A stretch of 64,000 bases of DNA. Origin: Synechococcus sp. Its GTDB lineage: Bacteria; Cyanobacteriota; Cyanobacteriia; PCC-6307; Cyanobiaceae. Each line of letters begins with the position of its first letter. Position 1 is the first letter of the stretch. The DNA lies in assembly GCA_047285535.1 (NCBI GenBank), contig JBJBDC010000001.1:768136-832135 (forward strand). Direction: 5' to 3'. Positions 6,020 through 34,957 of the stretch are shown here, one piece after another. The notes below the pieces were generated by a model. It searched no databases. It had not been told where the DNA came from and saw only the letters and a program-made list of their open reading frames with translations. The position numbers and the translations under genes were made by a program.

Positions 6020-6538
6020 TCATGCGTTGGATTGCTCCTGCTGATCAGGGCTTGCTTGGAGTTTTGGATTGGTCTCAGCCAGCAGTGCCAACAACCATTC
6101 GATCCGTTGGAGACGTTGATCGAGTTTCATTTCAAGGCTGGTGAGCCGTTCTTCGAATTTCGTTTCACTGAGACCCTTGCTCCGGCTGCTGCTCGTGGTG
6201 GCTTTAACAGGCCAGGCACCGCTTTGACAGGTCTGAACAATCACCGCCCAGGTTGGTTTTTTAGGAGCGGGTCCGATCTGGTTTTCAATCCAAGCCTGTG
6301 CCTCCGCAACCTTGCCGAAGCGCTTTTTCAGCGCCGGCTGCTCGCATTCGTCGGCCGGTAAAAGACCTGCTGCTGCAAGGGCTTTACTGCCTGTTGCCCC
6401 CGGCTCCTCTGGAGGAATGAGGTCATCCACCATTTGCCGCACATGGCCGTTCTGTTCTCCGATGGTGCGATACAGATCAGCGTCACTCTTGGCCATTCGA
6501 GCCATGAGCTCAGCGAAGCGATTGCTGAGATCTCCCAT
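6020..6538 (-). CDS. Hypothetical protein with C-terminal coiled coil
   Basis: 172-aa ORF starting 1 bp after the upstream gene; its 3' half is conserved in a second copy at 24.7-24.98 kb. Confidence 0.7.
   Translation of the reverse strand: MGDLSNRFAELMARMAKSDADLYRTIGEQNGHVRQMVDDLIPPEEPGATGSKALAAAGLLPADECEQPALKKRFGKVAEAQAWIENQIGPAPKKPTWAVIVQTCQSGAWPVKATTSSSRSKGLSETKFEERLTSLEMKLDQRLQRIEWLLALLAETNPKLQASPDQQEQSNA
6022..6060 (+). repeat. Displaced DUF4336 5'-end scar (left half of core)
   Basis: ATG CGT TGG ATT GCT CCT GCT GAT CAG GGC (MRWIAPADQG); tcctgctgatcag is identical to 33787-33799. Confidence 0.6.
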
Positions 6539-6539
6539 G

Positions 6540-7040
6540 CTATTTGGAACCGCGAAGCAGCAGTTTCATCTGCTCAATCAGTTTGTTGATCTGAAGAATC
6601 GACCAGAAACCAGGGTGCTCTTTGGCCTCTTCCAGATCATGGAGCAACTCGTCTAGAGCTTGTTGTTTGTACTCAAATCCCTCCAGTTCTTTGTGCATGT
6701 CTTGAGCGAGACGCATGGCCTCTGCCTTTTCCTCTCCAATCGCCACCAAACGCTCTTCGTAAGTTCTCAATGTGTTGATGAAGTTCAGGCGAGCTTCGCT
6801 GAACTCCCTTGATCGCCGTTTCAGCTGGCCTCGGGAGCGCATGAGCGAGGCGTGGCTATTGCGCATTGCTTTGTAATGGTGATCCGCTTGCTCCGCAGTG
6901 AGTCCGGACAAATCCTTTGGAAAATCACTGGTGGAGCGAATGCCTTTGCATTCGATCTGTGGCTGAATCGCATTGGTGCTCAATGTCGTAATGGAACGAT
7001 TGAGTTGATCAGAATTGGCTTGCTGCAGATCCCCTGCCAT
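6540..7040 (-). CDS. Hypothetical coiled-coil protein
   Basis: 166-aa helical, charged ORF; operon-like with 6020-6538. Confidence 0.7.
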   Translation of the reverse strand: MAGDLQQANSDQLNRSITTLSTNAIQPQIECKGIRSTSDFPKDLSGLTAEQADHHYKAMRNSHASLMRSRGQLKRRSREFSEARLNFINTLRTYEERLVAIGEEKAEAMRLAQDMHKELEGFEYKQQALDELLHDLEEAKEHPGFWSILQINKLIEQMKLLLRGSK

Positions 7041-7354
7041 TGCGCAATTTGTTGAACTTCAAGTCTTTTTTCTATAGAAGCCACCCCTGAATTTGCAATG
7101 CTTCTCAGCATGAACTCAGGGAACTTTGAGGAAACAGTTTTGGCAGCGGTTGTCCTCGACAGCGCAAATACCCAGACCCTGATTCAATCCGTTGGAACCT
7201 ATTGCCATAGCAAGCTACGCCGCTCACGATCCGGGCACGATCACCTCCCATTCGAGGATCGTGGCGCGATTGGTTTTTCAAGGCCCATCAATATTGAAAT
7301 CACGCCCAAAACTGATCGGTCGCATAGGGCCGTAACGTGCCACCGACTGCACAT

Positions 7355-7393
7355 AGCGACAGCTGGCTACAGGTGATCAGGCGAGAGGGCATG
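7355..7393. repeat. 39-bp direct repeat, copy 2
   Basis: See 4154-4192; minus strand reads MPSRLITCSQLSL. Confidence 0.9.
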
Positions 7394-7410
7394 GGAGGGC
7401 TCAACCCTCC

Positions 7411-7857
7411 TTACGATGCCTCTGCCCCCCGGTTTTGCGCAGCCCCCACCTGAGGGAGTGAGTCCCTCTGGGACGTTGCTGTTTGCGGCGTGATGGCGTC
7501 ACAGCGATAGGTTTCAATCACCCCACGGCGCTGGCGGAACTCGGGATGGTCCTGGTCCAACGCCCGCCACCACCAGCGACCATCGGTGTAGCTGGGCACA
7601 CCAGTGTTATTGGTGCGGGGCAGCTGCAACGTGAGGCCGCGCCAGTGAATCAGCAGCCCATCGCCAGGCACGGTGCCGGCCGTTGTATTGGGAATCGGCG
7701 CCGCCAGGGCCCCCATCGCCTCCTGCCCGAGATCAATAATTTCCAAGCTGAGAGGGTCGCCCTCGCAGATCCAGTCCGCCGCCGCCGGCAGCGGTATCGC
7801 CAGCATCCACTGAAGGGTGAGCACCAGCCCTAGCAGGGCACGACAACAGCGGTTCAT
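7411..7857 (-). CDS. Hypothetical secreted protein
   Basis: Signal peptide ending AAA-D; LPRTNNTGVPSYTDGRWWW segment. Confidence 0.7.
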   Translation of the reverse strand: MNRCCRALLGLVLTLQWMLAIPLPAAADWICEGDPLSLEIIDLGQEAMGALAAPIPNTTAGTVPGDGLLIHWRGLTLQLPRTNNTGVPSYTDGRWWWRALDQDHPEFRQRRGVIETYRCDAITPQTATSQRDSLPQVGAAQNRGAEAS

Positions 7858-7929
7858 CGGAGGTTCATCGGAACGACATCCACAGCGGACTCCAACACGC
7901 GACAGATTGTGAGTCTGATTGTTCCAGCC

Positions 7930-8163
7930 ATGCTTCCCTGCAATCCGTTCTGTCCGATCAGTGCGGCGAAGATCGCCGGCCTCAAGGCCACCGTGCTGTT
8001 ACTCATGATGCTGCTGTTCAAGTCGAAGCTGCTGCGCCTGAAGATGTCGCTGCTTGGCTCCCTGCTGGGTCTACTGATGCTGACGGGCTTTCTGATCAGC
8101 ACCGGTCTGCTCACCCTGGTGGCCGGCGGCGCGGTGGCCTACGCCGCAACGCGCAGCAAGTGA
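7930..8163 (+). CDS. Small membrane protein
   Basis: Hydrophobic ORF; start uncertain. Confidence 0.55.
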   Translation: MLPCNPFCPISAAKIAGLKATVLLLMMLLFKSKLLRLKMSLLGSLLGLLMLTGFLISTGLLTLVAGGAVAYAATRSK

Positions 8164-8227
8164 TCGAAACGCTGGAGCATCGCCGAGCCCCGAGCAGAGC
8201 CTGACCGCATCGGCCTGGGGAAACCGC

Positions 8228-8410
8228 TCAGGATTCGTTCCTGAAGATGCGCTCCAGTTCAGCGCGAAAATCCTGGCTTGAGAGCGGTGCAGAGAACCGT
8301 CGGCTGCGATTGCGGCGCAACAGCGCCGCAATCCACCAGATCTGCAGCCCGGCGCCACAGGCTCCGAACAGCAGCAGGCTGATGGTGGGCTTGTTGAACG
8401 CGATGTGCAT
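8228..8410 (-). CDS. Small single-TM hypothetical protein
   Basis: 60 aa; TM followed by FRAELERIF. Confidence 0.6.
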   Translation of the reverse strand: MHIAFNKPTISLLLFGACGAGLQIWWIAALLRRNRSRRFSAPLSSQDFRAELERIFRNES

Positions 8411-8622
8411 GGGCCGCTGCCCTCAAGGTGCCGATCAGACCTGAATCATCTCCATGAATGCTCCTGATCTGCGGCAGGAGCACAAAGACGAAAGTGGGGA
8501 TTGCATCCAGCGCGAGCTGAGAAGCTTTGTCTGGGTCCACAAAAAATATTGGGGCGCACTGCTGGAGCCTTCACCAGACTGAAGCTGATCTTGCCCCGGG
8601 GGTTTACGGTTTTGCACCTCCC

Positions 8623-9174
8623 TCAGATGGGTGGGATGGTGCCAGCGGGCGTTCCCACATCGAAAGAGGTGTTGGAACTTGCCGAAGCATTGTTCAGCAG
8701 GCGATTCAGATTGACCCCTGCCTCATAGGCGGCACGGTGCAGGTCCTGGCGTTGCTGATCGTCCAGGCCATCCCAGAAGGCATGGAGCAGATCAACCGAG
8801 GCCTTGCCCAGGCCCACGAACCCAACCAGGGCAAGGGGCACACCGAGCCAGGGGAAGACCAGCAGAACAACGCTGAGCACCAGGCTCACGACCGCACCAT
8901 GTTTGGCCGACTCCCAGACGCTGGAGGCGATCGCCTGCACCTGGGTTGGACGATCGATGGCTCCCCGCTTGCGCAGCGCTTCCGTTCGCAGGGCCGTGAG
9001 CAGGGCCTGATAGATCGCATAAACCGCCACGCCACCGAGGGTGGATTCACCGATGAACTCGCGGCCGCTCCAGGCACCGCCATTGCCGTTGAGATCAATG
9101 GAAGCCAGGCCCGCTGCTGGCGCGACTTCCCAACGGGCCTTGGGAATCCGGTAGGGATCAATCTCGCGGCTCAT
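8623..9174 (-). CDS. Hypothetical membrane protein
   Basis: 183 aa with hydrophobic hairpin VVSLVLSVVLLVFPWLGVPLALVGFVG. Confidence 0.7.
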   Translation of the reverse strand: MSREIDPYRIPKARWEVAPAAGLASIDLNGNGGAWSGREFIGESTLGGVAVYAIYQALLTALRTEALRKRGAIDRPTQVQAIASSVWESAKHGAVVSLVLSVVLLVFPWLGVPLALVGFVGLGKASVDLLHAFWDGLDDQQRQDLHRAAYEAGVNLNRLLNNASASSNTSFDVGTPAGTIPPI

Positions 9175-9430
9175 GGTTGAACAAGAGAGGGGAGATCAAT
9201 ACCAGTCTGCTTTGAATGGGCTGTCTGTCGCCAGCCTGGTGGCCAAAACGACCTCTGAACTGATGACTGAATCTGACTGATCAGCCTCACGATTGGATCT
9301 CCATTTGATCTCAGCCGCCTCCATCCACTCCAGACCCCGATCGCGCTGGGTGCTGAAACTGAGATTCCAGGTTGTTGATGATGGTTCGGCGGGCCCGAAC
9401 GCGAGGCCGCATCCAATCAATAGCCAATCG

Positions 9431-9730
9431 ATGAATCCGATCAGCAATCAGAATCTGAAACTGGATCAGATCCCCGATCCGGATGGCAACTGGACTCACT
9501 GGGTCCGCTTCGCGCACACCATCAATGGCTATGAGATTCAGGGTGGATTTGAACCCTGCGCCGATCGAGCGAATTCCGGTTCGGCAGCAACGCTCACTGA
9601 GTTGCGCTCTGCTTTGTTTTTTGAAGCCCGTCGTGATCGTCACAGTGGTGGCATCTCCACCAATGAGCAGTTGATTCGAAAACTGCTACGAGCGATTCGG
9701 CAGAAGGTGAGTGCAGGCGCATTGGATTGA
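9431..9730 (+). CDS. Hypothetical protein
   Basis: 99-aa globular-looking ORF (FAHTINGYE...LRSALFFEARR). Confidence 0.65.
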   Translation: MNPISNQNLKLDQIPDPDGNWTHWVRFAHTINGYEIQGGFEPCADRANSGSAATLTELRSALFFEARRDRHSGGISTNEQLIRKLLRAIRQKVSAGALD

Positions 9731-9777
9731 GCTCCAGGACGAAATCCACCAGACTGAAGGCTCTGAAATCTCAACAA

Positions 9778-10734
9778 ATGACGGGGAATCGAAGCCAAAC
9801 AGCGGCTGGTACTCCCCTTCCCCGCGCCGTGTTCCTCGATGCCCTCAGCCTGGGGCCGGTGGATCTCACGCCGATGCAGCAATGGTGTGATCTGCAGGCC
9901 TGGCCCTCCACCGCCCTGGATGAGCGCCTGGAGCGCCTGCTCGATGCCGAGATCGCCATCACCAACAAGATTCCGATGGATGGCGCATTGTTGCGCCAGT
10001 TGCCCAGGCTGCGCCTGATTGGCGTGGCCGCTACCGGCACCGATCAGATCGACCATGCCGCCTGCGAAGAGCTTGGCATTCGCGTACGCAACGCAGGGCG
10101 CTACAGCCGTGCGTCGGTGGTGCAGATCACCTGGGCCCTGATCCTCGAGCTCTGCTGTGCCATGAATCAGCGACGCATGGATCTGCTCGCTGGGAGCTGG
10201 CAGTGCAGCCCGATGTTTTCCGTAATCGAGCCGGAGTTCGATGAACTGGAAGGGCAGACCCTGGTGGTGCTCGGTGCCGGTGATATCGGCCGTGGGGTGC
10301 TGGCCATCGGCGAGGCCTTCGGGATGAGGTGCCTCGCCCTCACCAGCCGCAGCAGCAGCGCTGAGGTGGAGAGGGCCCTGCGCCAGGCCGATGTGCTCAG
10401 CCTCCATGCCCCGCTGACGCCGCACACCCAGAACCTGATCAATGCTCAGCGGCTGGGTTGGATGAAACCCAGCGCCCGGCTGGTGAACATGGCCCGCGGC
10501 GGCCTGGTGAATCTCGAGGATCTCTGCGCAGCCCTGCGCCACGGTCAGCTCGCTGGCGCCGCCCTCGATGTGCTGCCGGAGGAACCCCCTGGTCCTGAGC
10601 TGAAGGTGTTGCTGAACACACCCAATCTGTTGATCAGTCCCCATATGGGCTGGAGTTCTCGCCAGTCCCGCAGCCGTTTGGTGCGCACCCTGGCCGGACA
10701 CCTGCAGTCCTACGTCTCTGCAGGCAACACCTGA
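9778..10734 (+). CDS. D-2-hydroxyacid dehydrogenase (glycerate dehydrogenase-like)
   Basis: ATGTDQID, LGAGDIG, LHAPLT, NMARGG, ALDVLPEEP, SPHMGW. Confidence 0.9.
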   Translation: MTGNRSQTAAGTPLPRAVFLDALSLGPVDLTPMQQWCDLQAWPSTALDERLERLLDAEIAITNKIPMDGALLRQLPRLRLIGVAATGTDQIDHAACEELGIRVRNAGRYSRASVVQITWALILELCCAMNQRRMDLLAGSWQCSPMFSVIEPEFDELEGQTLVVLGAGDIGRGVLAIGEAFGMRCLALTSRSSSAEVERALRQADVLSLHAPLTPHTQNLINAQRLGWMKPSARLVNMARGGLVNLEDLCAALRHGQLAGAALDVLPEEPPGPELKVLLNTPNLLISPHMGWSSRQSRSRLVRTLAGHLQSYVSAGNT

Positions 10735-10757
10735 CTCAACAGCGCGAACAACTCGTC

Positions 10758-10822
10758 ATAGTCCGTGCAACTGAGGGCATCTCGCCAGACGAACAACCAT
10801 GGCCTGGTGGCCGCTGCTGCCT
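10758..10822 (+). repeat. Displaced DUF4336 5'-end scar / att-like site
   Basis: ATA GTC CGT GCA ACT GAG GGC ATC TCG CCA GAC GAA CAA CCA TGG CC- TGG TGG CCG CTG CTG CCT; tggtggccgctgctgcc is identical to 33809-33825; 27/31 identical to 29118-29148. Confidence 0.8.
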
Positions 10823-11069
10823 AGTGCAGCCCAGGATCAAGGACTCATTTCAGATGATTGCCCCTGAGCTGTGCCATTTAAAACTTACGCCACTGGTATC
10901 TGTGATGTGCAACTGAATGATTCCTCTCTTGGCGTAGCCGTCTCTCTTGATGGCTACGCATCAAGTCAAAGGAGTGTTTGCCGGGATCAATGGCAAGTCT
11001 GCGTTATGACCCACAAAACACCCCCAGAGGTCATCGATGATTCATGAGCTGAGGGCGTTCGTGAGCCCA

Positions 11070-12776
11070 TCAGTCAGACAGCGTTGGATTCGGGGTCATC
11101 GTCTTGTGCATGGTTTCAATCACCTCCTCCGCCAAAGGCTGGCTCTCTTCAGCAGGAATGAGCACTTCGAGGTAAGCCGCTCCTTGATGAGCACTGATTG
11201 CGGCCAATGCTTGCTCCAGTTCCGCAACGGTTGCAGCCCGGCCGCACCACCAACCCCTGCATCCAAGAACAGCGGGAATATCTGCGTAGCGCCAAGGGGG
11301 CAAATCGTTGTAGGCATGGCCCGTTTCACTGATCAACGCCTCTATCCCGTGCAGGCTATTGTTCAGAACGATCACCACAGGCTTGACCCCTGTGAAGCCC
11401 ATCACCCCGATCTCCTGCACCGTGAGCTGGTGGGCGCCATCACCGGTGACCAAAACGACCCGACGCTCGGGTTCAGCCAAAGCGCATCCCAGAGCGGCCG
11501 GTGTGCCCCATCCGATCGATCCCCAGAGGGTCTGACTTTCCATTGTCACGCCATCCGGTAATCGGATGGCGTTGAGTTTCAGAAGGCATGTGCCGGTATC
11601 CGACACCAAGAGGTCGTTGGGGCGAAGGAATTGCTGCAAGCGGGGGTAGAAGCTTGCTGAATCGGTGGGCTGATCTGGAGCTCCAAGAAGGGGCAGCATG
11701 GGAGCGGGCTGCACTGGTCGATGCTCTCCCCAATAGGAGAGGCGTTTCGACGCTGACTGAAAGCGTCTCGTCAGTCCTGCCAGGACATCACTGATGCTCA
11801 CACTCGTGAACACCTGATGACCGGCTTGGACCCAGTCGGCGTGCAAAGCAACGATCCGGTTGGGATCGAGTGACCCACTCCAAAGTCCTGTGTTGAGGTC
11901 CTCCAGCACCAACCCTCCAAGATCGATGAGCAGATCGGCCTCTTCCACCACGCTTTGGAGGGCAGCTGGGGTGGACCGACCACCGTTGTACATGCCAAGG
12001 AAAGCGGGGTGCTGCTCACTGAGCAGTGCCTTGTCCATGGGTGTCGTTGCATAGGCCAGGCCGGAGGCCTTGAGGAAATTCTCGAATGCATTCACCAGCC
12101 CGAAACGCTTCAGGGTGATGGTGGGGAGCACAACCGGAGATGATGCTGAGGCAATCCGTGCCTCCAGGAGATCAAGGACAGCCTCAAGTTCACCAGCAAC
12201 ACTGTCATGCTGGTCGATGACACCAAGAGGAGAGCCTTGGATGGGAGTCCCGGTGATCGGCATGAGAGCCAGATCCATCGGGAAGGTGAGGTAAGCAGGC
12301 CTGGATTCCTCCAGAGCTTTATCAATCACCCGCTCCAGTTCGATGACAGCGTTTTCAGGCGTGAGCCTGGCGCTGACACAGCTTGCAGAAGCGGAGATGG
12401 CCTCGAAGCGGTCATAGTTTCGATCGCCGAGGGTGTGATGACAGATGAGGCCTTGTCGCACGATCCGAAGACTGGGAGTGCCTACCAGATGAAACACGGG
12501 TAGACGTTCAGCCATGGCTCCCATCAGGCCATTGAGTGCACTCAGTTCGCCAACTCCATAAGTGGTGCAGACGATGGCAGCCCCTCGGCGGCGGGCATAG
12601 CCATCAGCCGCGAAAGCCGCATTCAGCTCATGAGCTGATGGCACCCAACTCAGCCTGGGATGCACCTCCACCGCATCGTTGATTGGAAAGGAATAATCGC
12701 CCGGTACACCAAACACGTGGCCAATTCCAAGATCAGCTAAGCGATCGAGGGCATAAGTCACCACAGAAGCAGTCAT
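11070..12776 (-). CDS. TPP-dependent alpha-keto acid decarboxylase (pyruvate/indolepyruvate decarboxylase family)
   Basis: FGVPGDY, AADGYAR, TTYGVGELSA, CHHTLGD, WGSIGW, GDGAHQLTVQE; alternative start at 12833. Confidence 0.92.
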   Translation of the reverse strand: MTASVVTYALDRLADLGIGHVFGVPGDYSFPINDAVEVHPRLSWVPSAHELNAAFAADGYARRRGAAIVCTTYGVGELSALNGLMGAMAERLPVFHLVGTPSLRIVRQGLICHHTLGDRNYDRFEAISASASCVSARLTPENAVIELERVIDKALEESRPAYLTFPMDLALMPITGTPIQGSPLGVIDQHDSVAGELEAVLDLLEARIASASSPVVLPTITLKRFGLVNAFENFLKASGLAYATTPMDKALLSEQHPAFLGMYNGGRSTPAALQSVVEEADLLIDLGGLVLEDLNTGLWSGSLDPNRIVALHADWVQAGHQVFTSVSISDVLAGLTRRFQSASKRLSYWGEHRPVQPAPMLPLLGAPDQPTDSASFYPRLQQFLRPNDLLVSDTGTCLLKLNAIRLPDGVTMESQTLWGSIGWGTPAALGCALAEPERRVVLVTGDGAHQLTVQEIGVMGFTGVKPVVIVLNNSLHGIEALISETGHAYNDLPPWRYADIPAVLGCRGWWCGRAATVAELEQALAAISAHQGAAYLEVLIPAEESQPLAEEVIETMHKTMTPNPTLSD

Positions 12777-13007
12777 CAAGTCGGCGTTGAGGATCACTTG
12801 GCGAGTCTGATTGTGGTCATCCCAGGGAGCCATGGGACACTCCGTGATGAGGTATTAAGAGTCACTTTTCAATGCGATGAGTTGTGGATTTTGCTTATGC
12901 ATGGGATTTGTGTTGTCTGCCCACAGACTTGCGGCGGGTTCAGCAAGAAACTGAGCACAGCTCGACTCCACTTCGGTGCAGAGTCGTGAGTAGAGAACCT
13001 GACCTGA

Positions 13008-13067
13008 GTGGCGGCACAGGGCATCCAATCGGTGGATCAGCACTGGCCCTGGCGGCCGCTGCTGCCA
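13008..13067 (+). repeat. Displaced DUF4336 5'-end scar / att-like site
   Basis: GTG GCG GCA CAG GGC ATC CAA TCG GTG GAT CAG CAC TGG CCC TGG CGG CCG CTG CTG CCA (MAAQGIQSVDQHWPWRPLLP). Confidence 0.85.
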
Positions 13068-14097
13068 GTCAGCAGTCTTTGATTGCAATGGTTTTAATGG
13101 ACATGTCTCTGAGCTATCCCTGTTCTTTGAGCAACTGGGCAGGATGGCGTGCAACTCCCAGTGGTTCAACCAAGCTTTGAATCCTGCTTCACAAATGATG
13201 GACCTAGACAACTAGCGCGTACCTCTCGAACTCTGGGACTTCTCCCCGATGACTCTTGGCGCGGTCATCACACCACCGCCGCAGCGCCATGGCGTCGTCC
13301 AAGGCGTCATCCAGGTCCTCAAAGTCCACCCCCCCATCACTTCGGTACGGTTGAGTCGAGCATGGATGGACCTGTGGATCCGGCCAAAGCCGCTGAGATG
13401 TGTCAGTTGTCGGAGCCTTGATCTGAGACAGCTGCGGCCATCCGCCGAATTGTCGGATGATCGAAGCGAATGAGGAGCACCTGCTGTGGCATCGACCAAC
13501 CGCACCTTGCTGAAGCGCCTGGCCGTGGATCTGGCTGAGCTTTGCAGTGATCCGGAGAATCTCGACTATGCCTTCGACCTGCTCAATGCCACCTATGGGA
13601 CTGAGGTGGCGCAGGCGGCACGCGACCGCCTCAAGAACGACCCGGACATCCGTCCGCTGGTGCAGGAGCGCTACTGGGGGAACTGGCCGGCACTGCCTGA
13701 GCTGGTGGCATTGCCGGCAGGATCGCTGGGCCATGTCTACGGCCTGTTCATCACATCGCAAGGACTGAGTGAACTGCCCGCTCCCGTGTTGCCCTCAGGG
13801 GTCGGAGGCGACGACGCCTACTTGCAGATGCGCATCCGCTACACCCACGATCTCTGGCATGTGATCGCCGGACTCCCCGTTAACCTCGCCGGAGAGGCGG
13901 CCGCCACCGGTCTCACCACCGAACAGCTGCGCTGGCCAGGAAGTGCACTCCTGATCGCTGCTGACCTGATCCATCGCGTCAGCACCACTGAAGCCGATGC
14001 CGAAGGAGACGTCGATGTGGGTGTGGCCATCGCCTACGGCCTCAACCTTGGGGCCCAGGCCCGCCCCCTGCTGGCCCAGCGCTGGGAGGAGGGCTGG
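13063..14097. repeat. ~1.03-kb near-identical direct repeat, copy 1 (copy 2 at 31461-32495)
   Basis: Offset 18398; I saw only one synonymous difference (ctc/cta aag). Confidence 0.95.
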
Positions 14098-14196
14098 CAG
14101 ACCCCTCTAAAAACCTGGCGGGAAGCGTTGGGGATCCGCACGCTTCTACGCCACAGCCCCTTCCCGTTGCTCACAGGTGAGATGCCGCGAAGCTGA
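13486..14196 (+). CDS. Coq4-family protein, copy A
   Basis: LPAGSLGHVY and HDLWHVIAGLPVNLAGE (HDxxH...E metal motif). Confidence 0.85.
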   Translation: MASTNRTLLKRLAVDLAELCSDPENLDYAFDLLNATYGTEVAQAARDRLKNDPDIRPLVQERYWGNWPALPELVALPAGSLGHVYGLFITSQGLSELPAPVLPSGVGGDDAYLQMRIRYTHDLWHVIAGLPVNLAGEAAATGLTTEQLRWPGSALLIAADLIHRVSTTEADAEGDVDVGVAIAYGLNLGAQARPLLAQRWEEGWQTPLKTWREALGIRTLLRHSPFPLLTGEMPRS

Positions 14197-14216
14197 CGCT
14201 GCCCAGCTCATCAGCG

Positions 14217-14774: not shown

Positions 14775-14810
14775 GGCAGCTGAATCGACATCATGCTGAT
14801 GTCATCTCCC

Positions 14811-15611: not shown

Positions 15612-15627
15612 CGCGCCGCGCTTGAAC

Positions 15628-22750: not shown

Positions 22751-22761
22751 CCAGGCCGCTG

Positions 22762-24559: not shown

Positions 24560-24696
24560 GCGGCAACCGGCGTGGCCAGTGATGCTGTTTAGCGCCGGGG
24601 TGGGTGGTTTGGCCCTGGCCTGATCCATTCCTCTGCAGAATCAGTGCATTGATGGGGAGCTTGGTGGCTGGAGCTGGTGTGAATCCTGCTGATCAG
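24560..24696 (+). repeat. ~137-bp displaced copy of the DUF4336 leader and first 12 codons
   Basis: Matches 33661-33799; the start ATG is TTG at 24661. Confidence 0.95.
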
Positions 24697-28329: not shown

Positions 28330-28986
28330 AAGAGGTTTGAGAGCGCTCCCAAAGGCCCAGGATGATGCGGTGTATTTCTGCGGGGTCGACCGGTTATCCC
28401 TGCACTGCTGCTGGTTCCTTGTAAGCGTTTTCTTGACCCGGATTCAGTCTTTTCCCATCCGTTGCGCTATCCACAAGAGGCATGCCGCAGAGATGGAATC
28501 GCGCCGGCTTCTGGCTTCTCCTGGCCAATGTTGGATCCATTTCATTAGGTTTTCACAGCTGGTGGCTCGACCGTTCTGATCGCTGAGCCATTGCACGCAG
28601 GATTTCACCCTTCGTGCAGCATGTTTCTCGGAATTTGCCGAGGCTTCGATTCGGTTCAGTCCTTTCCGCTGATAGACGCCCAATGAACTTCGTACTGGAC
28701 CGCCTGCGTTGCGCCTGATGTCTTTGTCGAAGTTCGCCAGTGCCTGGTCGACTGCTCTTGAGATCGCAACATCGGGATCTTCGGAGGTGGAGGTCAGCTT
28801 CAGCCACTTCTGATCGCCCGATCCGTGAGCTCGGGTGTTGAAGGAGAGGTCGATCAGGTCTTCCCCTGACGGCCTGGTTTTTCGTCGTAACGAGAGGCCG
28901 TATCGATCAGAGTGAATGGGACGGAGATACTTGGAGAGTCACTTCAGCCTTGCGTTGTTACGGCGTTGCCCAGTCGTCTCTGTCAT
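28330..28986 (-). pseudogene. Decayed tyrosine recombinase/integrase N-terminal part, catalytic domain missing
   Basis: ATG 28986, TGA at codon 16, then ~165 open codons (GLSLRRKTRPSGEDLIDLSF...LMKWIQHWPGEARSRRDSISAACLLW), then a frameshift to ...AYKEP..*PVDPAEIHRII; resembles arm-binding plus core-binding regions of cyanobacterial integrases. Confidence 0.55.
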
Positions 28987-29101
28987 CTAGGAACAACGCT
29001 GTACATCCGCCAATTTTTTCCCTGAATTGTCCCTAAAACCACTTGCACAAGGTTTTGCCCACATGCACAAAAAGAGTCCATGGACACAGCTGATTTGAGT
29101 G

Positions 29102-29161
29102 ATGGCAGGCAATCTGAGTGAAACTGAGGGCATCTCCCGAGACGATCAGGGCTGGCCCTGG
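29102..29161 (+). repeat. Displaced DUF4336 5'-end scar / att-like site next to the integrase
   Basis: ATG GCA GGC AAT CTG AGT GAA ACT GAG GGC ATC TCC CGA GAC GAT CAG GGC TGG CCC TGG (MAGNLSETEGISRDDQGWPW). Confidence 0.8.
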
Positions 29162-29286
29162 CTGATCGACATCAAATCGTCTACCTCAGTCACCTAGCGG
29201 AAAGCCAGGGCTATGTCCGGCGCCGAAGCTGCGGTGGCAAAGATGCCCAAGACAACTCACAGAAGCAAAGCGGAGACGATCACTGA
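29161..29286 (+). pseudogene. 3' remnant of a small membrane protein (paralog of 17238-17495)
   Basis: ADRHQIVYLSHLAESQGY..CGGK vs ADRHQIVYLRHLAETQGY..CGGK. Confidence 0.8.
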
Positions 29287-29298
29287 GGCATAGAGGGA

Positions 29299-29880
29299 TC
29301 AACCATCAACCAGACCGTGCAATTTGGCGAAAGTCGCAACCTGATCTGCCAGCTCGGGGCTGACCCATTGGGCAATCACCGCCAAGGACATGTCGATCCC
29401 TGCCGAGACTCCCGTCGAGCTGAAGAATTTTCCATCTTCCACCCAACGCGCTTGTTTCTCCCACTGCACCAAGGAGCTCTGGAACGTCACCCAATCGAAG
29501 GCCATCTTGTTGGTGGTGGCACGTACCCCATCCAGCACAGCGGCTTTGGCAAGTAGGGCACTGCCGGTGCAGACGGAGGTCACGAGAGTGGCGCGCTGCG
29601 ACTGATCCCTCAACCAATCCAACAGCAGCTGATTGCCAACCTCCTGCCGTGTGCCTGGTCCGCCCGGAACCAGCAGCAGCTCGAAGCCAAGAACATCACG
29701 GAAGGAACAATCCGTGATGTTCTTGGGCCCCTGGCGGCTGGCGATCACGCCGCCAGGCTCACAGACCAGGCGGATGTCGAAATGGTCTGCTGCCATTCCA
29801 TACATTTCCAGTGGACCAAGGACATCAAGAAGTTCAAAACCTTCAAAGCGAAGAACTCCGATGCTTCGTTTGTTGGACAT
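29299..29880 (-). CDS. DJ-1/PfpI family protein, copy B (C-terminally shortened)
   Basis: Same motifs as 17710-18336; lacks EYDWH..DPFA. Confidence 0.85.
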   Translation of the reverse strand: MSNKRSIGVLRFEGFELLDVLGPLEMYGMAADHFDIRLVCEPGGVIASRQGPKNITDCSFRDVLGFELLLVPGGPGTRQEVGNQLLLDWLRDQSQRATLVTSVCTGSALLAKAAVLDGVRATTNKMAFDWVTFQSSLVQWEKQARWVEDGKFFSSTGVSAGIDMSLAVIAQWVSPELADQVATFAKLHGLVDG

Positions 29881-29954
29881 TGGCTAGTCCTCACGAGTGG
29901 ATGACGCCTTACAGCTGGTGCAAGCGGCCGTTGCCAAGGCTGCTGGCCTGGAGA

Positions 29955-30665
29955 TCAGAGCCGAGTACCGCTGCGGTTAGCACTGGCGGGTTCGCTGATC
30001 GGCACTCCTGGCCTCCAATGCTGCACAGAGAACGTTTGATTTGGGGCCGGGATGCCGCTTGCTGGTGGCTTGATCTGACTGCGCCAGCCGCTGGTCCACT
30101 TGATCATCACGCTGCCATTGTCCCGGAGCGACCAGGAGCCATCAGCCACTTGATCGATGTTGTTGAAAGCCATTCCCGAGGAGGTGAGCACCGCGAGATA
30201 AGGGGGTTTCTCGGGCTGGCTTGGCTGCAGTTTGTACGCTCCCACCCAAGCCGAGATCGGACGAGTGAGTTGCACCGCCTTGCCGTGATTACTGGGGCCT
30301 CCATTCAGTGAGGCACCAGGTTTCCACGACCACTGGACCAGACCGGCCGGGCCGAGTTGAATCGTGTCGGTCCAACCGTCTCGATAGGTCGAGCGGATGC
30401 CGTTACCCCAGGCCTGCCAGCTGCCGGTCTCCAACAGCTGATTACGCGTCATGCGTTGCGGCTCTCCAAGATCGGGATGACGTTTGCCGATCACTGTGAG
30501 CGAAGAGCCATCGGCTCGCAGGATCAGATTGAACGGCACATTGTCATTGTCGGTAAGCACCCAGGTACCCAGCATGCGTTTGGCATCGGGCTGAGGAAAA
30601 CCAGCCCCGAGAAGTGCGCCACACAGCAAGAGTGCAGCAGGGGCTTTTACCCAGAAGAGGCCCAT
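29955..30665 (-). CDS. Hypothetical secreted protein
   Basis: Signal peptide; two GxW-type beta-rich repeats. Confidence 0.7.
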   Translation of the reverse strand: MGLFWVKAPAALLLCGALLGAGFPQPDAKRMLGTWVLTDNDNVPFNLILRADGSSLTVIGKRHPDLGEPQRMTRNQLLETGSWQAWGNGIRSTYRDGWTDTIQLGPAGLVQWSWKPGASLNGGPSNHGKAVQLTRPISAWVGAYKLQPSQPEKPPYLAVLTSSGMAFNNIDQVADGSWSLRDNGSVMIKWTSGWRSQIKPPASGIPAPNQTFSVQHWRPGVPISEPASANRSGTRL

Positions 30666-30888
30666 GTCAGTTCGGTTGATTCCCTTGGTTTAGCAGCAGT
30701 GCACACAAGCCACCGCAGGCTCAGGAAACACAGGCAAGTGGGTGGTTCTACTCAAGTGCTTCAAATGGTTATCAACAGCACGATCAGACTTGAACAGCGA
30801 AGAGCACATTGAGAGTGCTGGGGCATCAATCGGTGATCATCACCATGTTGACGCCGGCCTTGAAAACAGACACCGAAATGCTGCTGTT

Positions 30889-31320
30889 ATGGACTCGCTG
30901 ACTGCTTTTGCTGCCATTGGATTGACAGCTGTGGCTTGGGATGGCTCGCTCACTCCAGCGGGGGGACGGGCCTTCCGCCATGCGCTCGATTACCGCGAGC
31001 CCTACTGCAACATGCGTGAGCAATCCATGGTTGATCTCATCGATTGCCTCCTGACACGTCGCCGTGAAATCGGTAACAACGCGCTCATGCTTGAAGCGGC
31101 TCAGGCGCTGAACAGCAGCCAATCACTCACCGCTTACGCCATGGCATCAGAGTTGATGCGATCTGACGGACCTTACGAGCCCGAGGAACGCCAACATCTG
31201 GATCATCTGGCTCTGGTTCTCTCGATTGCCAAACCGGAATCCGATCGTATCGATTCGGTGTTTGATGTCTTGCACAATCAACTGAAGCTCTGGTCTGAGC
31301 TGCAAACACAACCAGCCTGA
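30889..31320 (+). CDS. TerB-family (tellurite resistance-like) protein
   Basis: AVAWDG...AYAMASELMRSDG.YEPEER..LDHLA..LSI. Confidence 0.8.
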   Translation: MDSLTAFAAIGLTAVAWDGSLTPAGGRAFRHALDYREPYCNMREQSMVDLIDCLLTRRREIGNNALMLEAAQALNSSQSLTAYAMASELMRSDGPYEPEERQHLDHLALVLSIAKPESDRIDSVFDVLHNQLKLWSELQTQPA

Positions 31321-31408
31321 AGATCCTGAATCTTCAGGACGATGACGTCAACGACAGCGCCTTGATTAAGGGTGCAAGAGGTGATATCGGCGGAACTGAA
31401 GATCAAGC

Positions 31409-31465
31409 ATGGGTGCAGATAGCGATCCAGCTGATCAACGCTGGGCCTGGTGACCTCTGATGCCA
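31409..31465 (+). repeat. Displaced DUF4336 5'-end scar / att-like site
   Basis: ATG GGT GCA GAT AGC GAT CCA GCT GAT CAA CGC TGG GCC TGG TGA CCT CTG ATG CCA (MGADSDPADQRWAW*PLMP). Confidence 0.85.
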
Positions 31466-32495
31466 GTCAGCAGTCTTTGATTGCAATGGTTTTAATGGAC
31501 ATGTCTCTGAGCTATCCCTGTTCTTTGAGCAACTGGGCAGGATGGCGTGCAACTCCCAGTGGTTCAACCAAGCTTTGAATCCTGCTTCACAAATGATGGA
31601 CCTAGACAACTAGCGCGTACCTCTCGAACTCTGGGACTTCTCCCCGATGACTCTTGGCGCGGTCATCACACCACCGCCGCAGCGCCATGGCGTCGTCCAA
31701 GGCGTCATCCAGGTCCTCAAAGTCCACCCCCCCATCACTTCGGTACGGTTGAGTCGAGCATGGATGGACCTGTGGATCCGGCCAAAGCCGCTGAGATGTG
31801 TCAGTTGTCGGAGCCTTGATCTGAGACAGCTGCGGCCATCCGCCGAATTGTCGGATGATCGAAGCGAATGAGGAGCACCTGCTGTGGCATCGACCAACCG
31901 CACCTTGCTGAAGCGCCTGGCCGTGGATCTGGCTGAGCTTTGCAGTGATCCGGAGAATCTCGACTATGCCTTCGACCTGCTCAATGCCACCTATGGGACT
32001 GAGGTGGCGCAGGCGGCACGCGACCGCCTAAAGAACGACCCGGACATCCGTCCGCTGGTGCAGGAGCGCTACTGGGGGAACTGGCCGGCACTGCCTGAGC
32101 TGGTGGCATTGCCGGCAGGATCGCTGGGCCATGTCTACGGCCTGTTCATCACATCGCAAGGACTGAGTGAACTGCCCGCTCCCGTGTTGCCCTCAGGGGT
32201 CGGAGGCGACGACGCCTACTTGCAGATGCGCATCCGCTACACCCACGATCTCTGGCATGTGATCGCCGGACTCCCCGTTAACCTCGCCGGAGAGGCGGCC
32301 GCCACCGGTCTCACCACCGAACAGCTGCGCTGGCCAGGAAGTGCACTCCTGATCGCTGCTGACCTGATCCATCGCGTCAGCACCACTGAAGCCGATGCCG
32401 AAGGAGACGTCGATGTGGGTGTGGCCATCGCCTACGGCCTCAACCTTGGGGCCCAGGCCCGCCCCCTGCTGGCCCAGCGCTGGGAGGAGGGCTGG
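31461..32495. repeat. ~1.03-kb near-identical direct repeat, copy 2
   Basis: See 13063-14097. Confidence 0.95.
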
Positions 32496-32594
32496 GAAAC
32501 CCCTCTCGATGGGTGGCGCAAGAGGCTCGGCATCTACTCGCTGCTGCAGACCACCCCGTTTCCGCGGCTGCACGGGGAGGCGGCAGACGGTTGA
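31884..32594 (+). CDS. Coq4-family protein, copy B
   Basis: Identical to copy A up to ...EEGW; last ~32 residues diverged. Confidence 0.85.
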   Translation: MASTNRTLLKRLAVDLAELCSDPENLDYAFDLLNATYGTEVAQAARDRLKNDPDIRPLVQERYWGNWPALPELVALPAGSLGHVYGLFITSQGLSELPAPVLPSGVGGDDAYLQMRIRYTHDLWHVIAGLPVNLAGEAAATGLTTEQLRWPGSALLIAADLIHRVSTTEADAEGDVDVGVAIAYGLNLGAQARPLLAQRWEEGWETPLDGWRKRLGIYSLLQTTPFPRLHGEAADG

Positions 32595-32623
32595 TGTTGT
32601 AGTGACCATTGCCGACTTGAAGA

Positions 32624-32656
32624 GATCAGTGATGGCCTTGGTTTCCGCTGCTGCTT
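32624..32656 (+). repeat. Displaced DUF4336 5'-end scar / att-like site
   Basis: GAT CAG TGA TGG CCT TGG TTT CCG CTG CTG CTT (DQ*WPWFPLLL). Confidence 0.8.
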
Positions 32657-32870
32657 CTAGCAAGCGACAAACTGATTATGGGGTTGAAAGCTGGTCACTA
32701 AGTTCCCGAGAGTTGTGTGTGCAAGTGGACGTGATCAAAGGCAACTCGGGACAATGTGAAGGCCATACTCAAAAACGAAGCAGTGAAAACCTATTCGCGA
32801 AAGATGTATAAACGAGCCTCTTGCGTGGTCTTGTGTATGACGACTGCTTGATCATGTTCGTAGTCTGTGA

Positions 32871-33251
32871 CTACATCCTGGGCAAGCAAAAATCAACAGT
32901 TAGTACGCCGTTCATGCCGCCTTCGATGAGTGGAATCATTACTGGGGATAAATCAAGATGAGGTTTTGACGTGTCATATGAAATGCGACAACTTTTGTTT
33001 TCAAAGACAATAAACAAACAGTGATTGTAACCCCTGGCCAAAAATGTCGCATCAGACGAAATACCGAAGGTATCTACAATTTCCTGCGGGAAGTTAAACG
33101 TTTCCAAGGGGCCGGCGTGGGCTAATTCAACCCCTGGGATTCTGGTTTTGAATGACTTAACCTGCTTGTCCACATCTGTAATTGCAATTGGACTCACGTC
33201 TTTCTTGATTTTCCAAAGGCCAATGTGAATAATTTTGGATGATGACATCAT
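32871..33251 (-). CDS. Dabb-family stress-responsive alpha/beta barrel protein
   Basis: IIHIGLWKIK...IPGV...GYNHCLFIVFE....Y...PH...VDF. Confidence 0.75.
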   Translation of the reverse strand: MMSSSKIIHIGLWKIKKDVSPIAITDVDKQVKSFKTRIPGVELAHAGPLETFNFPQEIVDTFGISSDATFLARGYNHCLFIVFENKSCRISYDTSKPHLDLSPVMIPLIEGGMNGVLTVDFCLPRM

Positions 33252-33763
33252 CGAATCATTTTTTCTGTTCTGCGTTGACATTCCTCTGGCTTCCCGTGGA
33301 TGATGCCTCTGGGACAAAGAGGCTGTTCTTGCAACCCTATGTGCTCTTTGAATGCCAGGGTGCCGTTTTAAAGACCATTAGTACCTGACCTCAGTTAGGT
33401 CTTCTGCCTTGAGTGGCTGCTGCTGACAGTCTGGATTCTCTAATTGCGGGGGTTGAGTGAAGCGAACCCTAAATCCCCCCCTTTTTCTTCAGCTTGGCTT
33501 GATTCTGTGAAAGTGAACCTTTTGAAGCGACTGACTTGTTTGTGACGCAATTGCTTTCTTGGGTGGAGTAAGCGTTGGCGATCGTTTATGGAAGGTGTGC
33601 CCCAGCGTTGAGCCTTCACTTCAGCCTGGCGTTGGTGGCGTTTGTTCTGTTGGTGAGTTAGCGGCAACCGGCGTGGCGTGTGGTGCTGTTTTTTGCGCCG
33701 GAGTGGGTGGTTTGACCCTGGCCTGATCCATTCCTCTGCAGAATCACTGCATTGACGGGGAGC

Positions 33764-34957
33764 ATGGTGGCTGGAGCTGGTGTGAATCCTGCTGATCAGC
33801 GTTGGGGTTGGTGGCCGCTGCTGCCGCTCTATCCCTATGGAAGGCGTGCCACCCACTTTGAAGAGCTCATCCCGGGCCAGGTATGGAGCTTTGAACAGCT
33901 CCAGGGCGTCTATTACGTGGCTGTGCCGATTCGGCTCACCGTGGTGAAGGTGCCCGGCGGCTTGATGCTGGTCAACCCACTGCCACCAACACAGGAATTA
34001 TGTGCCGGCTTAGCGGACCTTGAAGCTCAGCACGGATCGGTCTGCACGATTGTGTTGCCGACAGCGTCAGGTCTGGAACATAAGTTTCCGCTGGGGCCAC
34101 TGGCTCGTGCTTTCCCTGAAGCCGAGATCTGGGTCTGCCCTGGCCAGTGGAGTTTCCCCGTGCAGCTGCCCCTGAACTGGCTCGGAGTACCGGCAGCACG
34201 CACCAAAGTTTTGCTCACGGATGGGGTGCCCCATCCCGAGATGTGCCAATGGATCTCCCTTGGCCCTCTTGATCTCGGCGTGGGTCGTTTCCAGGAAATC
34301 AGCTGCCTGCATCGACCCAGTGGCGCCTTGCTGATCACCGATGCCCTGGTTGGCATTCACGCCCAACCCCCAGCCATTTTTGATCGCGATCCCACGCCGT
34401 TGTTGTTTCACGCTCGCAACCGTGGCGATCAACCCCTGATGGATTCAACCGAGGCACGGCGGCGAGGATGGGCCCGTCTGGTGCTGTTCGCCTCCTATCT
34501 GCGGCCCTACAAATTGCGTGTACCAGGCCTCGCCGAGTTGTTGCGCCATGCATTCCGGCCGGGATTACGAACAGGGAAAGCCCACTTCGGGCTTTATCCA
34601 TTCGATTGGCAAGACGGCTGGCACGATGATGCCATGAACCTGATGGGTGAAGAAGAAGCCAAATTACAAGTGGCTCCTGTTCTGGAACGACTGGTATTGC
34701 CGAGAGCACAACGGGCCCTCATCGCCTGGCTGGAACAACTGGAATCATGTTCTGATCTTGCCTGGCTGATCCCTGCCCACTACAGCGCACCTCTGCCATT
34801 CACGGCATTGCAGGCATCCGCTTTGCAAACGGACTTGCGACACAAGGCCTGGGCAACAAACGAAGGCAACTGGACCTTTCTTGCCAATATTGATCAACGT
34901 CTTTTAGAACTTGGATTTGTACCAGACGATCCTCTTAAAAAGAAATATTCAAATTGA
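33764..34957 (+). CDS. DUF4336 domain protein (metallo-beta-lactamase-like fold)
   Basis: WWPLLPLYPYGRR, VPIRLTVVK, TASGLEHK, IPAHY. Confidence 0.85.
   Translation: MVAGAGVNPADQRWGWWPLLPLYPYGRRATHFEELIPGQVWSFEQLQGVYYVAVPIRLTVVKVPGGLMLVNPLPPTQELCAGLADLEAQHGSVCTIVLPTASGLEHKFPLGPLARAFPEAEIWVCPGQWSFPVQLPLNWLGVPAARTKVLLTDGVPHPEMCQWISLGPLDLGVGRFQEISCLHRPSGALLITDALVGIHAQPPAIFDRDPTPLLFHARNRGDQPLMDSTEARRRGWARLVLFASYLRPYKLRVPGLAELLRHAFRPGLRTGKAHFGLYPFDWQDGWHDDAMNLMGEEEAKLQVAPVLERLVLPRAQRALIAWLEQLESCSDLAWLIPAHYSAPLPFTALQASALQTDLRHKAWATNEGNWTFLANIDQRLLELGFVPDDPLKKKYSN

Follow-up and report, generated by a model that had tools for sequence, protein, structure and literature searches.

The question raised by this locus is why pieces of one gene start recur, on one strand, through ~30 kb of otherwise unrelated genes. 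The locus lies in a stretch of 64,000 nucleotides (nt) from Synechococcus sp. (assembly GCA_047285535.1, contig JBJBDC010000001.1, positions 768,136 to 832,135 of the forward strand), which is referred to as the window and is a chromosome segment of a marine Synechococcus. The gene in question encodes a protein of the DUF4336 family. Its first ~20 codons very probably hold the site at which a family of integrative elements of marine Synechococcus attaches to the chromosome, and serial landings at this site are likely to have built the island upstream of the gene. The best reading of the family is that it is tycheposon-like and integrates by tyrosine recombination, a reaction that we infer. A preliminary description of the window had proposed serial integration at the 5' coding end of the DUF4336 gene, with each event supplying a new promoter and N-terminus and leaving a scar. 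This proposal is supported by arrays of gene-start copies in other Synechococcus loci, by a conserved arm beside the copies, by a protein with a recombinase fold at the junction, and by N-termini that match the genes of other strains.

Target gene and variable island

Based on Pfam assignments, the gene order in the window is sbcD (21-1202), sbcC (1208-3925), ~30 kb of unrelated genes, the DUF4336 gene, and then DUF760, lepB, menD and glgA. The two features that define the locus are:

3926-33660, no strand: variable island, from the end of sbcC to the leader of the live DUF4336 gene; the upstream gene content differs among loci
33764-34957, plus strand: functional DUF4336 gene, the target (Pfam PF14234, expectation value (E) 3.7e-113); it starts MVAGAGVNPADQRWGWWPLLP

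DUF4336 homologues number 1189 at E ≤ 1e-30, and the closest are from Synechococcus/Parasynechococcus throughout, with a top identity of 94%. For comparison, 80 DUF4336 loci (given as L-numbers) were taken from species-representative genomes scanned with the DUF4336 alignment, with up to 10 kb on each side; 33 are of the Synechococcus type and 47 of the Prochlorococcus type. Downstream of DUF4336, the genes DUF760, lepB and menD are preserved in 78-80 of the 80 loci. The upstream genes of the window are absent within 10 kb upstream of DUF4336 in the 80 loci, save for a few common cassettes. L002 has the decarboxylase, Coq4 and the entire stretch 29139-33418 in common with the window, L003 the Nramp cassette, and L007 the P450 cassette. 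The preliminary description had anticipated that N-termini and upstream content would vary among strains, and both do: the N-termini fall into discrete types, and the window's upstream genes mostly do not recur.

No tRNA or tmRNA gene lies within the 64-kb window, and no Pfam integrase was found among the scanned open reading frames (ORFs) across it. DUF4336 itself was considered as a recombinase and rejected, as it is a conserved family in synteny with DUF760-lepB-menD in nearly all loci and carries no recombinase signature that was found.

Distribution of core copies across genomes

The core of the gene start was represented by a 33-nt weight matrix built from gene copies only, and this matrix was scanned over 32 Synechococcus loci and the window (L032 is without a complete core). 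At a threshold of 20 bits, 28 extra cores were found, all on the gene strand and all upstream (234,243 positions). The control, comprising the downstream plus strand (339,898 positions) and the minus strand of both regions (234,243 and 339,931 positions), gave 0 hits in 913,072 positions, with a maximum of 7.5 bits. A chance origin of the core copies is excluded by this comparison. Such a profile scan against background had been proposed in the preliminary description, and its outcome, with copies exclusively upstream and on the gene strand, favours the serial-integration proposal.

Of the 24 Synechococcus loci whose upstream sequence spans 3 kb or more, 16 contain one or more extra cores or arms. 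The intervals between sites (n = 34) have a median of 2.65 kb and range from 487 to 18,398 nt, and 30 of them are no longer than 5 kb. Strain-to-strain breakpoints cluster at the cores, as had been predicted: on full loci, 39 of 1024 ends of high-scoring segment pairs fall within -35 to +10 of a core, whereas 500 random trials gave 5.1 on average and never more than 14. The upstream cargo is mostly ordinary by Pfam and includes sulfatase, DUF1214/DUF1254, SwmB-like repeat giants, RTX proteins, oxidoreductases, and sigma/anti-sigma pairs. The rank of the DUF1214/DUF1254 cassette varies among the arrays: it lies next to the gene in L011 and L021, takes second place in L013 and fourth place in L005. 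One cassette protein of 467 amino acids (aa) in L029 (899-2302, minus strand) begins with a ubiquitin-family domain (PF00240, E = 8.6e-20), after which come a SwmB-type repeat and DUF4114, and this fusion is unusual for a cyanobacterium.

Among the Prochlorococcus-type loci, 40 of 47 could be scanned, each with its own core, and L049 (MIT 0707) alone has an extra copy. The array system is therefore essentially a Synechococcus feature. In L049, the region 3841-10025 (Prochlorococcus sp. MIT 0707) holds an extra core (26/33), a weak arm and integrase remnants, and in L063 of a deep-branching Prochlorococcus, inverted arm repeats lie beside DUF4336 at 303-336. These traces in deep-branching Prochlorococcus show that the element family has crossed the genus border. 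In Prochlorococcus (e.g., L056:10004 and L057:10004), the W-P-W-W-P codons read TGGCCATGGTGGCCA, which makes the core match its reverse complement (22-24/33). The resulting palindrome was considered as a second site and rejected, being explained by codon choice.

The conserved arm beside the core

Gene copies and scars diverge directly after the core. Gene copies read ...GCC followed by G or T into the coding sequence, whereas most scars read ...GCC followed by A into a conserved non-coding arm of ~95 nt, referred to as the P' arm. Core positions 30-34 are GCCGC or GCCGT in 29 of the 33 gene copies, and GCCAC is found in 0 of 33. The arrangement GTGGC-CGCTGCT-GCCAC, a 5-bp inverted repeat around 7 nt, is present in 17 of the 28 scars.

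Within the P' arm, TTGTCCCTG occurs twice in direct orientation at a spacing of about one helical turn, and a TGTGCAAC-like motif is present twice at a spacing of about two turns. An nhmmer profile of the arm yields 30 matches at E < 1e-4, all on the plus strand and all upstream in Synechococcus loci, including 13069, 31467 and 32662 in the window. Allowing 1 mismatch, the 11-mer TGTGCAACTGG occurs 7 times in the window (1.92 expected; 0 of 100 shuffles reach 7), and five of these occurrences lie in arms. The 9-mer TTGTCCCTG shows no significant enrichment in the window alone, with 27 occurrences versus 18.6 expected and 10 of 100 shuffles reaching 27. RNAalifold, applied to 19 arms, finds 0 conserved pairs, which argues against the arm being an RNA element. 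The only Rfam family at gathering thresholds in the window is Cyano-1, and none is found at the core or scar sites.

Scars and cassettes in the window

The exact 32-mer core occurs once, at 33794. Ungapped copies on the plus strand are found at 13035 (26/32), 31433 (25/32) and 32624 (25/32), and the next-best match anywhere in the 64 kb, on both strands, is 20/32. The scars, partial copies and cassette genes are listed below, with the two commonest leaders designated type A and type B.

6022-6061, plus strand: partial core copy in a segmental duplication; it keeps the first 19 core nt
10758-10916, plus strand: old decayed scar with a type-B leader remnant, a core with a 1-nt deletion and a decayed arm; the right half of the core is exact over 17 nt
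11070-12833, minus strand: thiamine pyrophosphate (TPP)-dependent decarboxylase, the gene of a 2.2-kb cassette between the scars at 10791 and 13035 (Pfam TPP_enzyme N, M and C domains)
12978-13163, plus strand: scar with displaced leader MAAQGIQSVDQ, core 13035-13067 and P' arm 13069-13163 (41.4 bits; arm E = 4.7e-20)
13486-14196, plus strand: Coq4-A; the first 1046 nt past core position 28 are near-identical to the Coq4-B cassette
24560-24709, plus strand: displaced type-A promoter and leader with the first 19 core nt, truncated and without arm (self-comparison)
29102-29161, plus strand: displaced type-B leader (MAGNLSETEGISRDDQ) with the first 18 core nt, then truncated (homology to L030)
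31409-31561, plus strand: scar with displaced leader MGADSDPADQ, core 31433-31465 and P' arm 31467-31561 (32.0 bits; arm E = 4.7e-20)
31884-32594, plus strand: Coq4-B, the gene of a 1.19-kb cassette between the cores at 31433 and 32624 (Pfam PF05019)
32624-32749, plus strand: scar with core 32624-32656 and P' arm 32662-32749 (30.1 bits; arm E = 1.2e-10)
33404-33447, plus strand: decayed scar with the right part of the core and the first ~20 nt of the arm (local alignment to L021:105)
33661-33793, plus strand: type-A promoter and leader of the live gene, 92% identical to 24560-24696
33794-33826, plus strand: live attachment core (attB/attR type), containing GTGGC-CGCTGCT-GCCGC

Nine of the eleven sites named in the preliminary description hold. 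The core at 33794 and the copies at 10791, 13035, 29144, 31433 and 32624 on the same strand are all real, with the copy at 10791 being gapped and that at 29144 partial. Among the proposed left halves, 24691 stands, 6043 is real, and 14209 is noise: its best score of 19 lies within the null distribution, which has a 95th percentile of 24 (300 random windows). The copy at 6043 is no independent insertion scar, because it lies inside a segmental duplication (6036-6341 corresponds to 24684-24988 at 94%). For the weaker right halves, the alignment at 33404-33447 scores 41 against a null maximum of 28 (300 random windows), and 25431 fails with a score of 22 against a 95th percentile of 24.

The module junctions described earlier were largely recovered, and several of them recur in other strains. 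The decarboxylase lies between 10791 and 13035 as claimed, and its protein is 89% identical in L002, where it is likewise followed by a core. Likewise, Coq4-B lies between 31433 and 32624; in L002 this cassette again sits between two cores (6054 to 7241), and the junction after Coq4 at 32624 recurs there. The 1-kb duplication was said to start at the right edge of the core, and the near-identical Coq4 tract does begin at core position 29. The stretch 13035-14108 matches 31433-32506 with 10 mismatches in 1074 nt, 7 of which are in core positions 6-28 and 3 thereafter, and the 60 nt upstream of the two cores are unrelated (19/60 identical). The Nramp cassette at 22690-24103 is 91% identical to L003:474-1886, and in L003 a complete core and arm come next. 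The segment 24560-24696 corresponds to 33661-33799 at 92%, i.e. the promoter and first 12 codons of the live gene are duplicated, and the same type-A leader is found upstream of DUF4336 in L003, L007, L010, L019, L020 and others. The leader region of the scar at 12978-13163 resembles leaders of L029. In the old scar at 10758-10916, the arm is weak (nhmmer E = 0.88), with an 11-mer match at 10906.

An alternative explanation is that the repeats are not scars and instead act as regulatory modules, in the form of a promoter, leader peptide or structured leader RNA that drives the cassette genes. Intact scars do retain a promoter-bearing leader, and both Coq4-A and Coq4-B follow on the same strand. 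Against this, the arms are devoid of conserved pairing, no Rfam family is found at the sites, the displaced leaders at 31433, 32624 and 10791 carry stop codons or frameshifts, and many cassette genes lie on the opposite strand. A regulatory role in place of a scar is thus very improbable.

Two minus-strand ORFs at 24641-25066 and 6020-6538, which are paralogues (88% over 97 aa), run into the displaced DUF4336 leader, and the reverse complement of leader and partial core thus makes up their last ~20 codons. The pair matched no family.

The 407-aa candidate recombinase and the intact element

In L030, from Synechococcus sp. MIT S1220, a scar at 1206 is separated from the gene at 10031 by 8.8 kb. 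The genes in L030:1206-10031 encode a GerE regulator, a 909-aa DUF3854 protein, a helix-turn-helix (HTH) protein, a helicase, and a 407-aa ORF that lies at 8651-9874 on the minus strand and starts ~150 nt from the core. The same 407-aa ORF (83% identical) is found in L023, directly upstream of DUF4336 and beside the same DUF3854 and HTH genes. An intact integrase next to a core, which the preliminary description had suggested looking for, was thus located in both loci. The DUF3854 protein gives an NCBIfam match to CyRepA1, a family of plasmid replication proteins from cyanobacteria, with E = 1.7e-34, which is below the curated cut-off. The contig of L023 (CAXQPR010000123.1) is labelled as a metagenome-assembled genome of Salipiger bermudensis and carries Synechococcus DUF4336, DUF760, lepB and the integrase element; since these genes are from Synechococcus, it is probably mis-binned.

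The 407-aa proteins of L030 and L023 have no Pfam match at E ≤ 1, PF00589 included, and no match in NCBIfam. Searches of the PDB by sequence and by profile give chance matches only (E > 1), and tblastn against phage and plasmid collections gives none. Among 18 distant relatives, two show a sub-threshold match to PF00589 (E = 7.9e-6 and 3.3e-3). A word-indexed search yields 38 family members, whose named organisms are Synechococcus, with KORDI-52 and MIT S9509 among them, and one 'bacterium' and whose every given name is 'hypothetical protein'; a profile search of 1.84 billion representative proteins yields 39 clusters at E ≤ 0.001.

The AlphaFold model (mean predicted local distance difference test score 78.7) has an N-terminal domain of three strands plus a helix, at residues ~10-95, a helical domain, and a C-terminal domain. 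All Foldseek matches in the PDB listed at E ≤ 0.01 are tyrosine recombinases; the best is full-length lambda integrase (Int; 1z1b_A, E = 4.1e-5, probability 1.00), and others are XerA, XerH, IntI, Cre and Tn1549 Int. By this model, the protein is predicted to share the catalytic-domain fold of lambda Int, Cre and Xer. Residues R241 (in TGAR), K272, R357, H358 and Y390, tentatively assigned by eye to the catalytic set R..K..H-x-x-R..H/W..Y, are invariant across 23 sequences and stand in the right order. Based on its position and predicted fold, the 407-aa protein is a candidate for the previously unannotated integrase that lands at the DUF4336 start.

The window holds the remains of such an element:

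28331-28986, minus strand: pseudogene of the 407-aa integrase (residues 1-222, frameshifted and truncated; tblastn with L030:8651-9874, E = 9e-98)
28987-29101, no strand: P arm of the decayed element, 115 nt, with the arm repeats inverted at 29039-29086

The pseudogene is 81% identical over residues 1-182 and 73% over residues 174-222. It is followed by the 115-nt P arm and then by the leader fragment at 29102. The segment 28371-29161 is 85% identical to L030:9249-10048, so that the copy at 29144 is homologous to the integrase-proximal junction of L030. The homology stops 18 nt into the core, and the cut at 29161 falls in the core itself. Within the P arm, a minus-strand nhmmer match covers arm-model positions 48-92, weak when taken alone (E = 0.025), and an 11-mer match lies at 29039 on the minus strand. 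Such weak minus-strand arm matches (E = 0.025-0.13) occur in exactly five loci, namely the window, L030, L023, L049 and L063, and these are the loci with the integrase, its remnants, or the matching leader. The type-B leader coding sequence also holds a copy of the TGTGCAAC-like motif.

Searching with the 407-aa protein by tblastn also reveals remnants in L049. Beyond L030, L023, the window, L049 and L029, tblastn finds no integrase or replication-gene remnant in the arrays. The earlier picture of mostly integrase-less cassettes hence stands for most arrays, and has to be amended for the window, which holds the decayed integrase at 28331-28986.

These remnants bear on whether every scar could be the relic of a full-length, integrase-bearing element that decayed in place, with small cassettes never having moved alone and no mobilisation in trans. 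A decay series can indeed be arranged, from the intact 8.8-kb element of L030 through the truncated integrase of the window to L029, in which a type-A core is only 487 nt away from the live type-B leader and a P-arm remnant persists. Decay in place is moreover a described route to cis-mobilizable elements, according to the review PMC5704250. It is at odds with the remaining arrays being free of integrase and replication remnants by tblastn, and with the same DUF1214/DUF1254 cassette appearing at different array ranks. In addition, native type-A leaders without P-arm repeats are common (all four sites in L003), and a decaying type-B element would leave none. Decay in place as the sole origin of the cassettes is therefore considered unlikely.

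N-terminal types and the probable point of exchange

For N-terminal typing, 120 listed homologues were used, of which 116 could be classified. The first 8-20 residues of DUF4336 homologues form discrete types in front of an invariant W-x-x-W-P-L-L-P-L-Y-P-Y-G, and the displaced leaders of the window find their counterparts among the living ones. The fragments at 29102 and 10758 match the ...LSATEGIS... type, and 24661 and the live gene match the ...VAGAGVNPADQ type. The leader at 31409 equals the living N-terminus of homologue P0069, and that at 13008 resembles homologues P0073 and P0095.

Leader types A and B each go with either of the two body types (12, 29, 26 and 12) and so assort freely with the gene body. 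They are nonetheless linked to the W-x-x-W codons, with type A going with WGFW in 34 of 41 cases and type B with WPWW in 37 of 38. Most exchanges therefore took place to the right of those codons, in the common 14-nt block, in agreement with the boundary of the Coq4 tract at core position 29. Judging from these sequences, the crossover most likely occurs in the 14-nt W-P-L-L-P block (core positions 19-32, about codons 17-21), and not at codon ~11 as the preliminary description had it. The D-Q-x-W motif stays conserved, since any incoming 5' end has to encode it.

The exchange of N-termini could in principle proceed without any site-specific recombinase, through homologous recombination together with unequal crossing-over and gene conversion along the edge of a replacement-type island, with the 407-aa gene as unrelated cargo. 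Homologous exchange does occur here, as seen in chimeras between leader and W-x-x-W codons and in the 1046-nt near-identical tract within older, diverged Coq4 paralogues, and segmental duplications are present in the island. Yet homologous recombination leaves unexplained the ~95-nt repeat-bearing arm, which stands beside 30 scars across species, always on the same side and with the same orientation. It also fails to explain why GCCGC gives way to GCCAC exactly at the border, and why a recombinase-fold gene and inverted repeats lie at the junction in three independent genomes. As a full account of the locus, homologous recombination is accordingly improbable.

Proposed mechanism

A complete element, as represented by the ~8.8 kb in L030, would consist of the 407-aa tyrosine recombinase, built of three domains as in lambda integrase, together with the CyRepA1-like DUF3854 protein, the small HTH protein, and variable cargo. 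Its own site is proposed to comprise a P arm, a private DUF4336 promoter and leader, the core, and the ~95-nt P' arm. Recombination within the 14-nt W-P-L-L-P block would splice the element in. After insertion, the gene body would be read from the promoter and N-terminus of the element, and those used before, now attached to the P' arm, would be displaced upstream as a dead scar. Repeated gene-proximal events and the subsequent loss of integrase and replication genes would give rise to cassettes of 0.35-5 kb by tandem accretion. Integrase-less cassettes with native-type leaders may have been moved in trans, as circles between two direct cores. This in-trans movement is the weakest step, and it is invoked because many scars carry native-type leaders without P-arm repeats.

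Several observations weigh against this scheme. The native-type leaders just mentioned are not produced by a simple lambda-style attP x attB reaction. Catalysis by the 407-aa protein is suggested by its position and predicted fold, the TM-scores of the Foldseek matches are low (0.34-0.40), and by alignment reading an Arg replaces the first His of H-x-x-R, with no His or Trp before the Tyr. Intact integrases are rare, being present in 2 of 33 Synechococcus loci, plus three remnants (the window, L049, and L063 with the P arm only). Within the proposed 7-nt spacer, the two cores of L030, left and right, show 3 differences, which points either to an element that has become fixed and drifts or to an overlap situated elsewhere in the 14-nt block. 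The copies are in part non-independent, since L017 and L021 have a 97% identical segment in common and the three arms of L029 are near-duplicates. Finally, 5 of 41 type-A leaders are joined to WPWW; these chimeras imply that exchanges also occur to the left of the proposed point and that ordinary homologous exchange also operates here.

Tentatively, the DUF4336 start may be an integron-like capture platform of the open ocean, where a rare recombinase, from a family that standard integrase models miss, is borne by a small plasmid-like element and acts in trans on any two direct cores. Cassettes of 0.35-5 kb would then circularise, travel between Synechococcus and deep-branching Prochlorococcus, and re-insert at DUF4336. 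Each cassette would bear only the P' arm and a borrowed gene start, the N-terminus would be rewritten at every event, and the type-B leader peptide would be encoded by a putative integrase-binding repeat.

Relation to known systems

If the DUF4336 start serves as the attachment site of a tycheposon-like family, as we consider likely, the closest comparison is with the tycheposons of Prochlorococcus, for which seven tRNA/tmRNA integration sites are given by Hackl et al. (bioRxiv 10.1101/2020.12.28.424599). Tycheposon-like insertions at tRNA-Phe of Synechococcus are described in PMC8995045. Within what these sources present, the likeness extends to the hosts, which are marine picocyanobacteria, and to the combination of a tyrosine-recombinase module, a small replication module and cargo (here L030:1206-10031). 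Also alike are the repeated integration at one site on the proximal island edge, by which older material is pushed inward, and the scattered partial copies of the target. The target differs, as it is here the 5' coding end of a protein gene and in tycheposons the 3' part of tRNA/tmRNA genes. The repeats of the window are accordingly pieces of DUF4336, in the absence of any tRNA or tmRNA gene, and the element must supply a promoter and N-terminus. Moreover, the scars retain a conserved arm with direct repeats, and the recombinase is without a Pfam match, whereas tycheposons were found by integrase screens; the two systems are compared by their descriptions.

Replacement of a gene's 5' end is known from another element. 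The SXT element reportedly supplies a replacement 5' end and forms tandem arrays. SXT/R391 elements resemble the present family in site-specific insertion into a conserved protein gene's 5' end. They differ in their size of ~100 kb, in being conjugative, in their gammaproteobacterial hosts, and in having a conventional integrase that Pfam recognises. We know of no long arrays of small integrase-less cassettes at prfC. Conjugation-related Pfam families were found neither in the window nor in the scanned cassettes, and the target is DUF4336 rather than prfC. Site-specific integration at the 5' end of prfC, a conserved protein gene, by a tyrosine recombinase is described in PMC2791158. Targeting and replacing a gene's 5' end thus has a precedent, which qualifies the novelty implied in the preliminary description; the site itself has none among the matches listed in a literature search on DUF4336 and on tyrosine-recombinase attachment sites in Synechococcus islands.

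Tandem-accretion arrays of att-flanked units that lack integration genes are described for cis-mobilizable elements of the ICESt1 family in PMC5704250. The present arrays are of this kind, with 28 cores and 30 arms in one orientation and most arrays without an integrase remnant. In the ICESt1 type, as far as that source goes, two or three units stand at the 3' ends of genes or tRNAs. Here, as many as five sites are packed into 10 kb (L029), the window has at least seven scars, the scars stand at a 5' end, and each unit has a different leader.

Integrons are comparable in their one-directional arrays of small cassettes, each with one recombination site, in the single insertion point at one end, and in a tyrosine recombinase that is rarely needed in cis per cassette. 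In contrast to integrons, the insertion point has no fixed IntI beside it, the sites do not take the form of attC-type hairpins (0 conserved pairs), the genes lie on both strands and are often several per cassette, and the site is within a coding region. An identity with integrons was rejected, since no recombinase adjoins the live site in the window or in most loci and the 19 arms lack conserved pairs. The site resembles lambda attP, with a short core between two arms that carry repeated arm-type motifs, and the predicted N-terminal three-strand-plus-helix domain precedes the core-binding and catalytic domains in the model as in lambda Int. In distinction to lambda, this N-terminal domain is a putative repeat binder, and the HTH protein is a candidate excisionase. 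What is new here is the combination of known features at a new site with an unrecognised recombinase family.

Genomic islands hold most niche-defining genes of marine picocyanobacteria. The same kind of engine as in the tycheposon, which came to light through recognisable integrases beside tRNAs, would work here at a protein gene, with a recombinase that escapes sequence searches of Pfam, NCBIfam and the PDB, which suggests that integrase-based screens undercount such hotspots. For a Synechococcus island with SwmB-like cell-surface giants, sulfatases, metal transporters and redox enzymes, the locus offers a site, an arm and an enzyme that are concrete and can be tested. It is also a case from nature of a conserved protein that has its promoter and first ~20 residues exchanged again and again. 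An integration tool for these organisms, which are hard to engineer, could be made from the short site and the small enzyme.

Other features of the window

Two paralogous DEDDh (DnaQ-like) exonucleases (47% over 166 aa) are encoded on the plus strand at 4835-5635 and 25697-27292, the former at the far left of the island and the latter just left of the integrase pseudogene. The exonuclease at 25697-27292 could be replication gear of the decayed element. A 39-nt direct repeat (85%) at 4154-4192 and 7355-7393 flanks 3.2 kb, which contain the exonuclease gene at 4835-5635 and the duplicated segment 6036-7256. This repeat may mark the ends of another inserted unit, or be due to chance. A 40-nt imperfect palindrome (85%) is located at 29687-29726, within the region of a DJ-1/PfpI gene.

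The small RNA Cyano-1 lies at 43003-43067 on the plus strand (Rfam RF01701, 56.4 bits, E = 3.7e-7). The region ~41000-57000 is a second one of low G+C content, with 0.43-0.51 versus 0.55-0.62 in the flanks. Interspersed with core genes (murF-like, glmU-like and aroA), it encodes an OprB-type porin, a Crp-family regulator, a 2-oxoglutarate (2OG)-Fe(II) oxygenase and a solute-binding protein, and may be another island or a recent acquisition.

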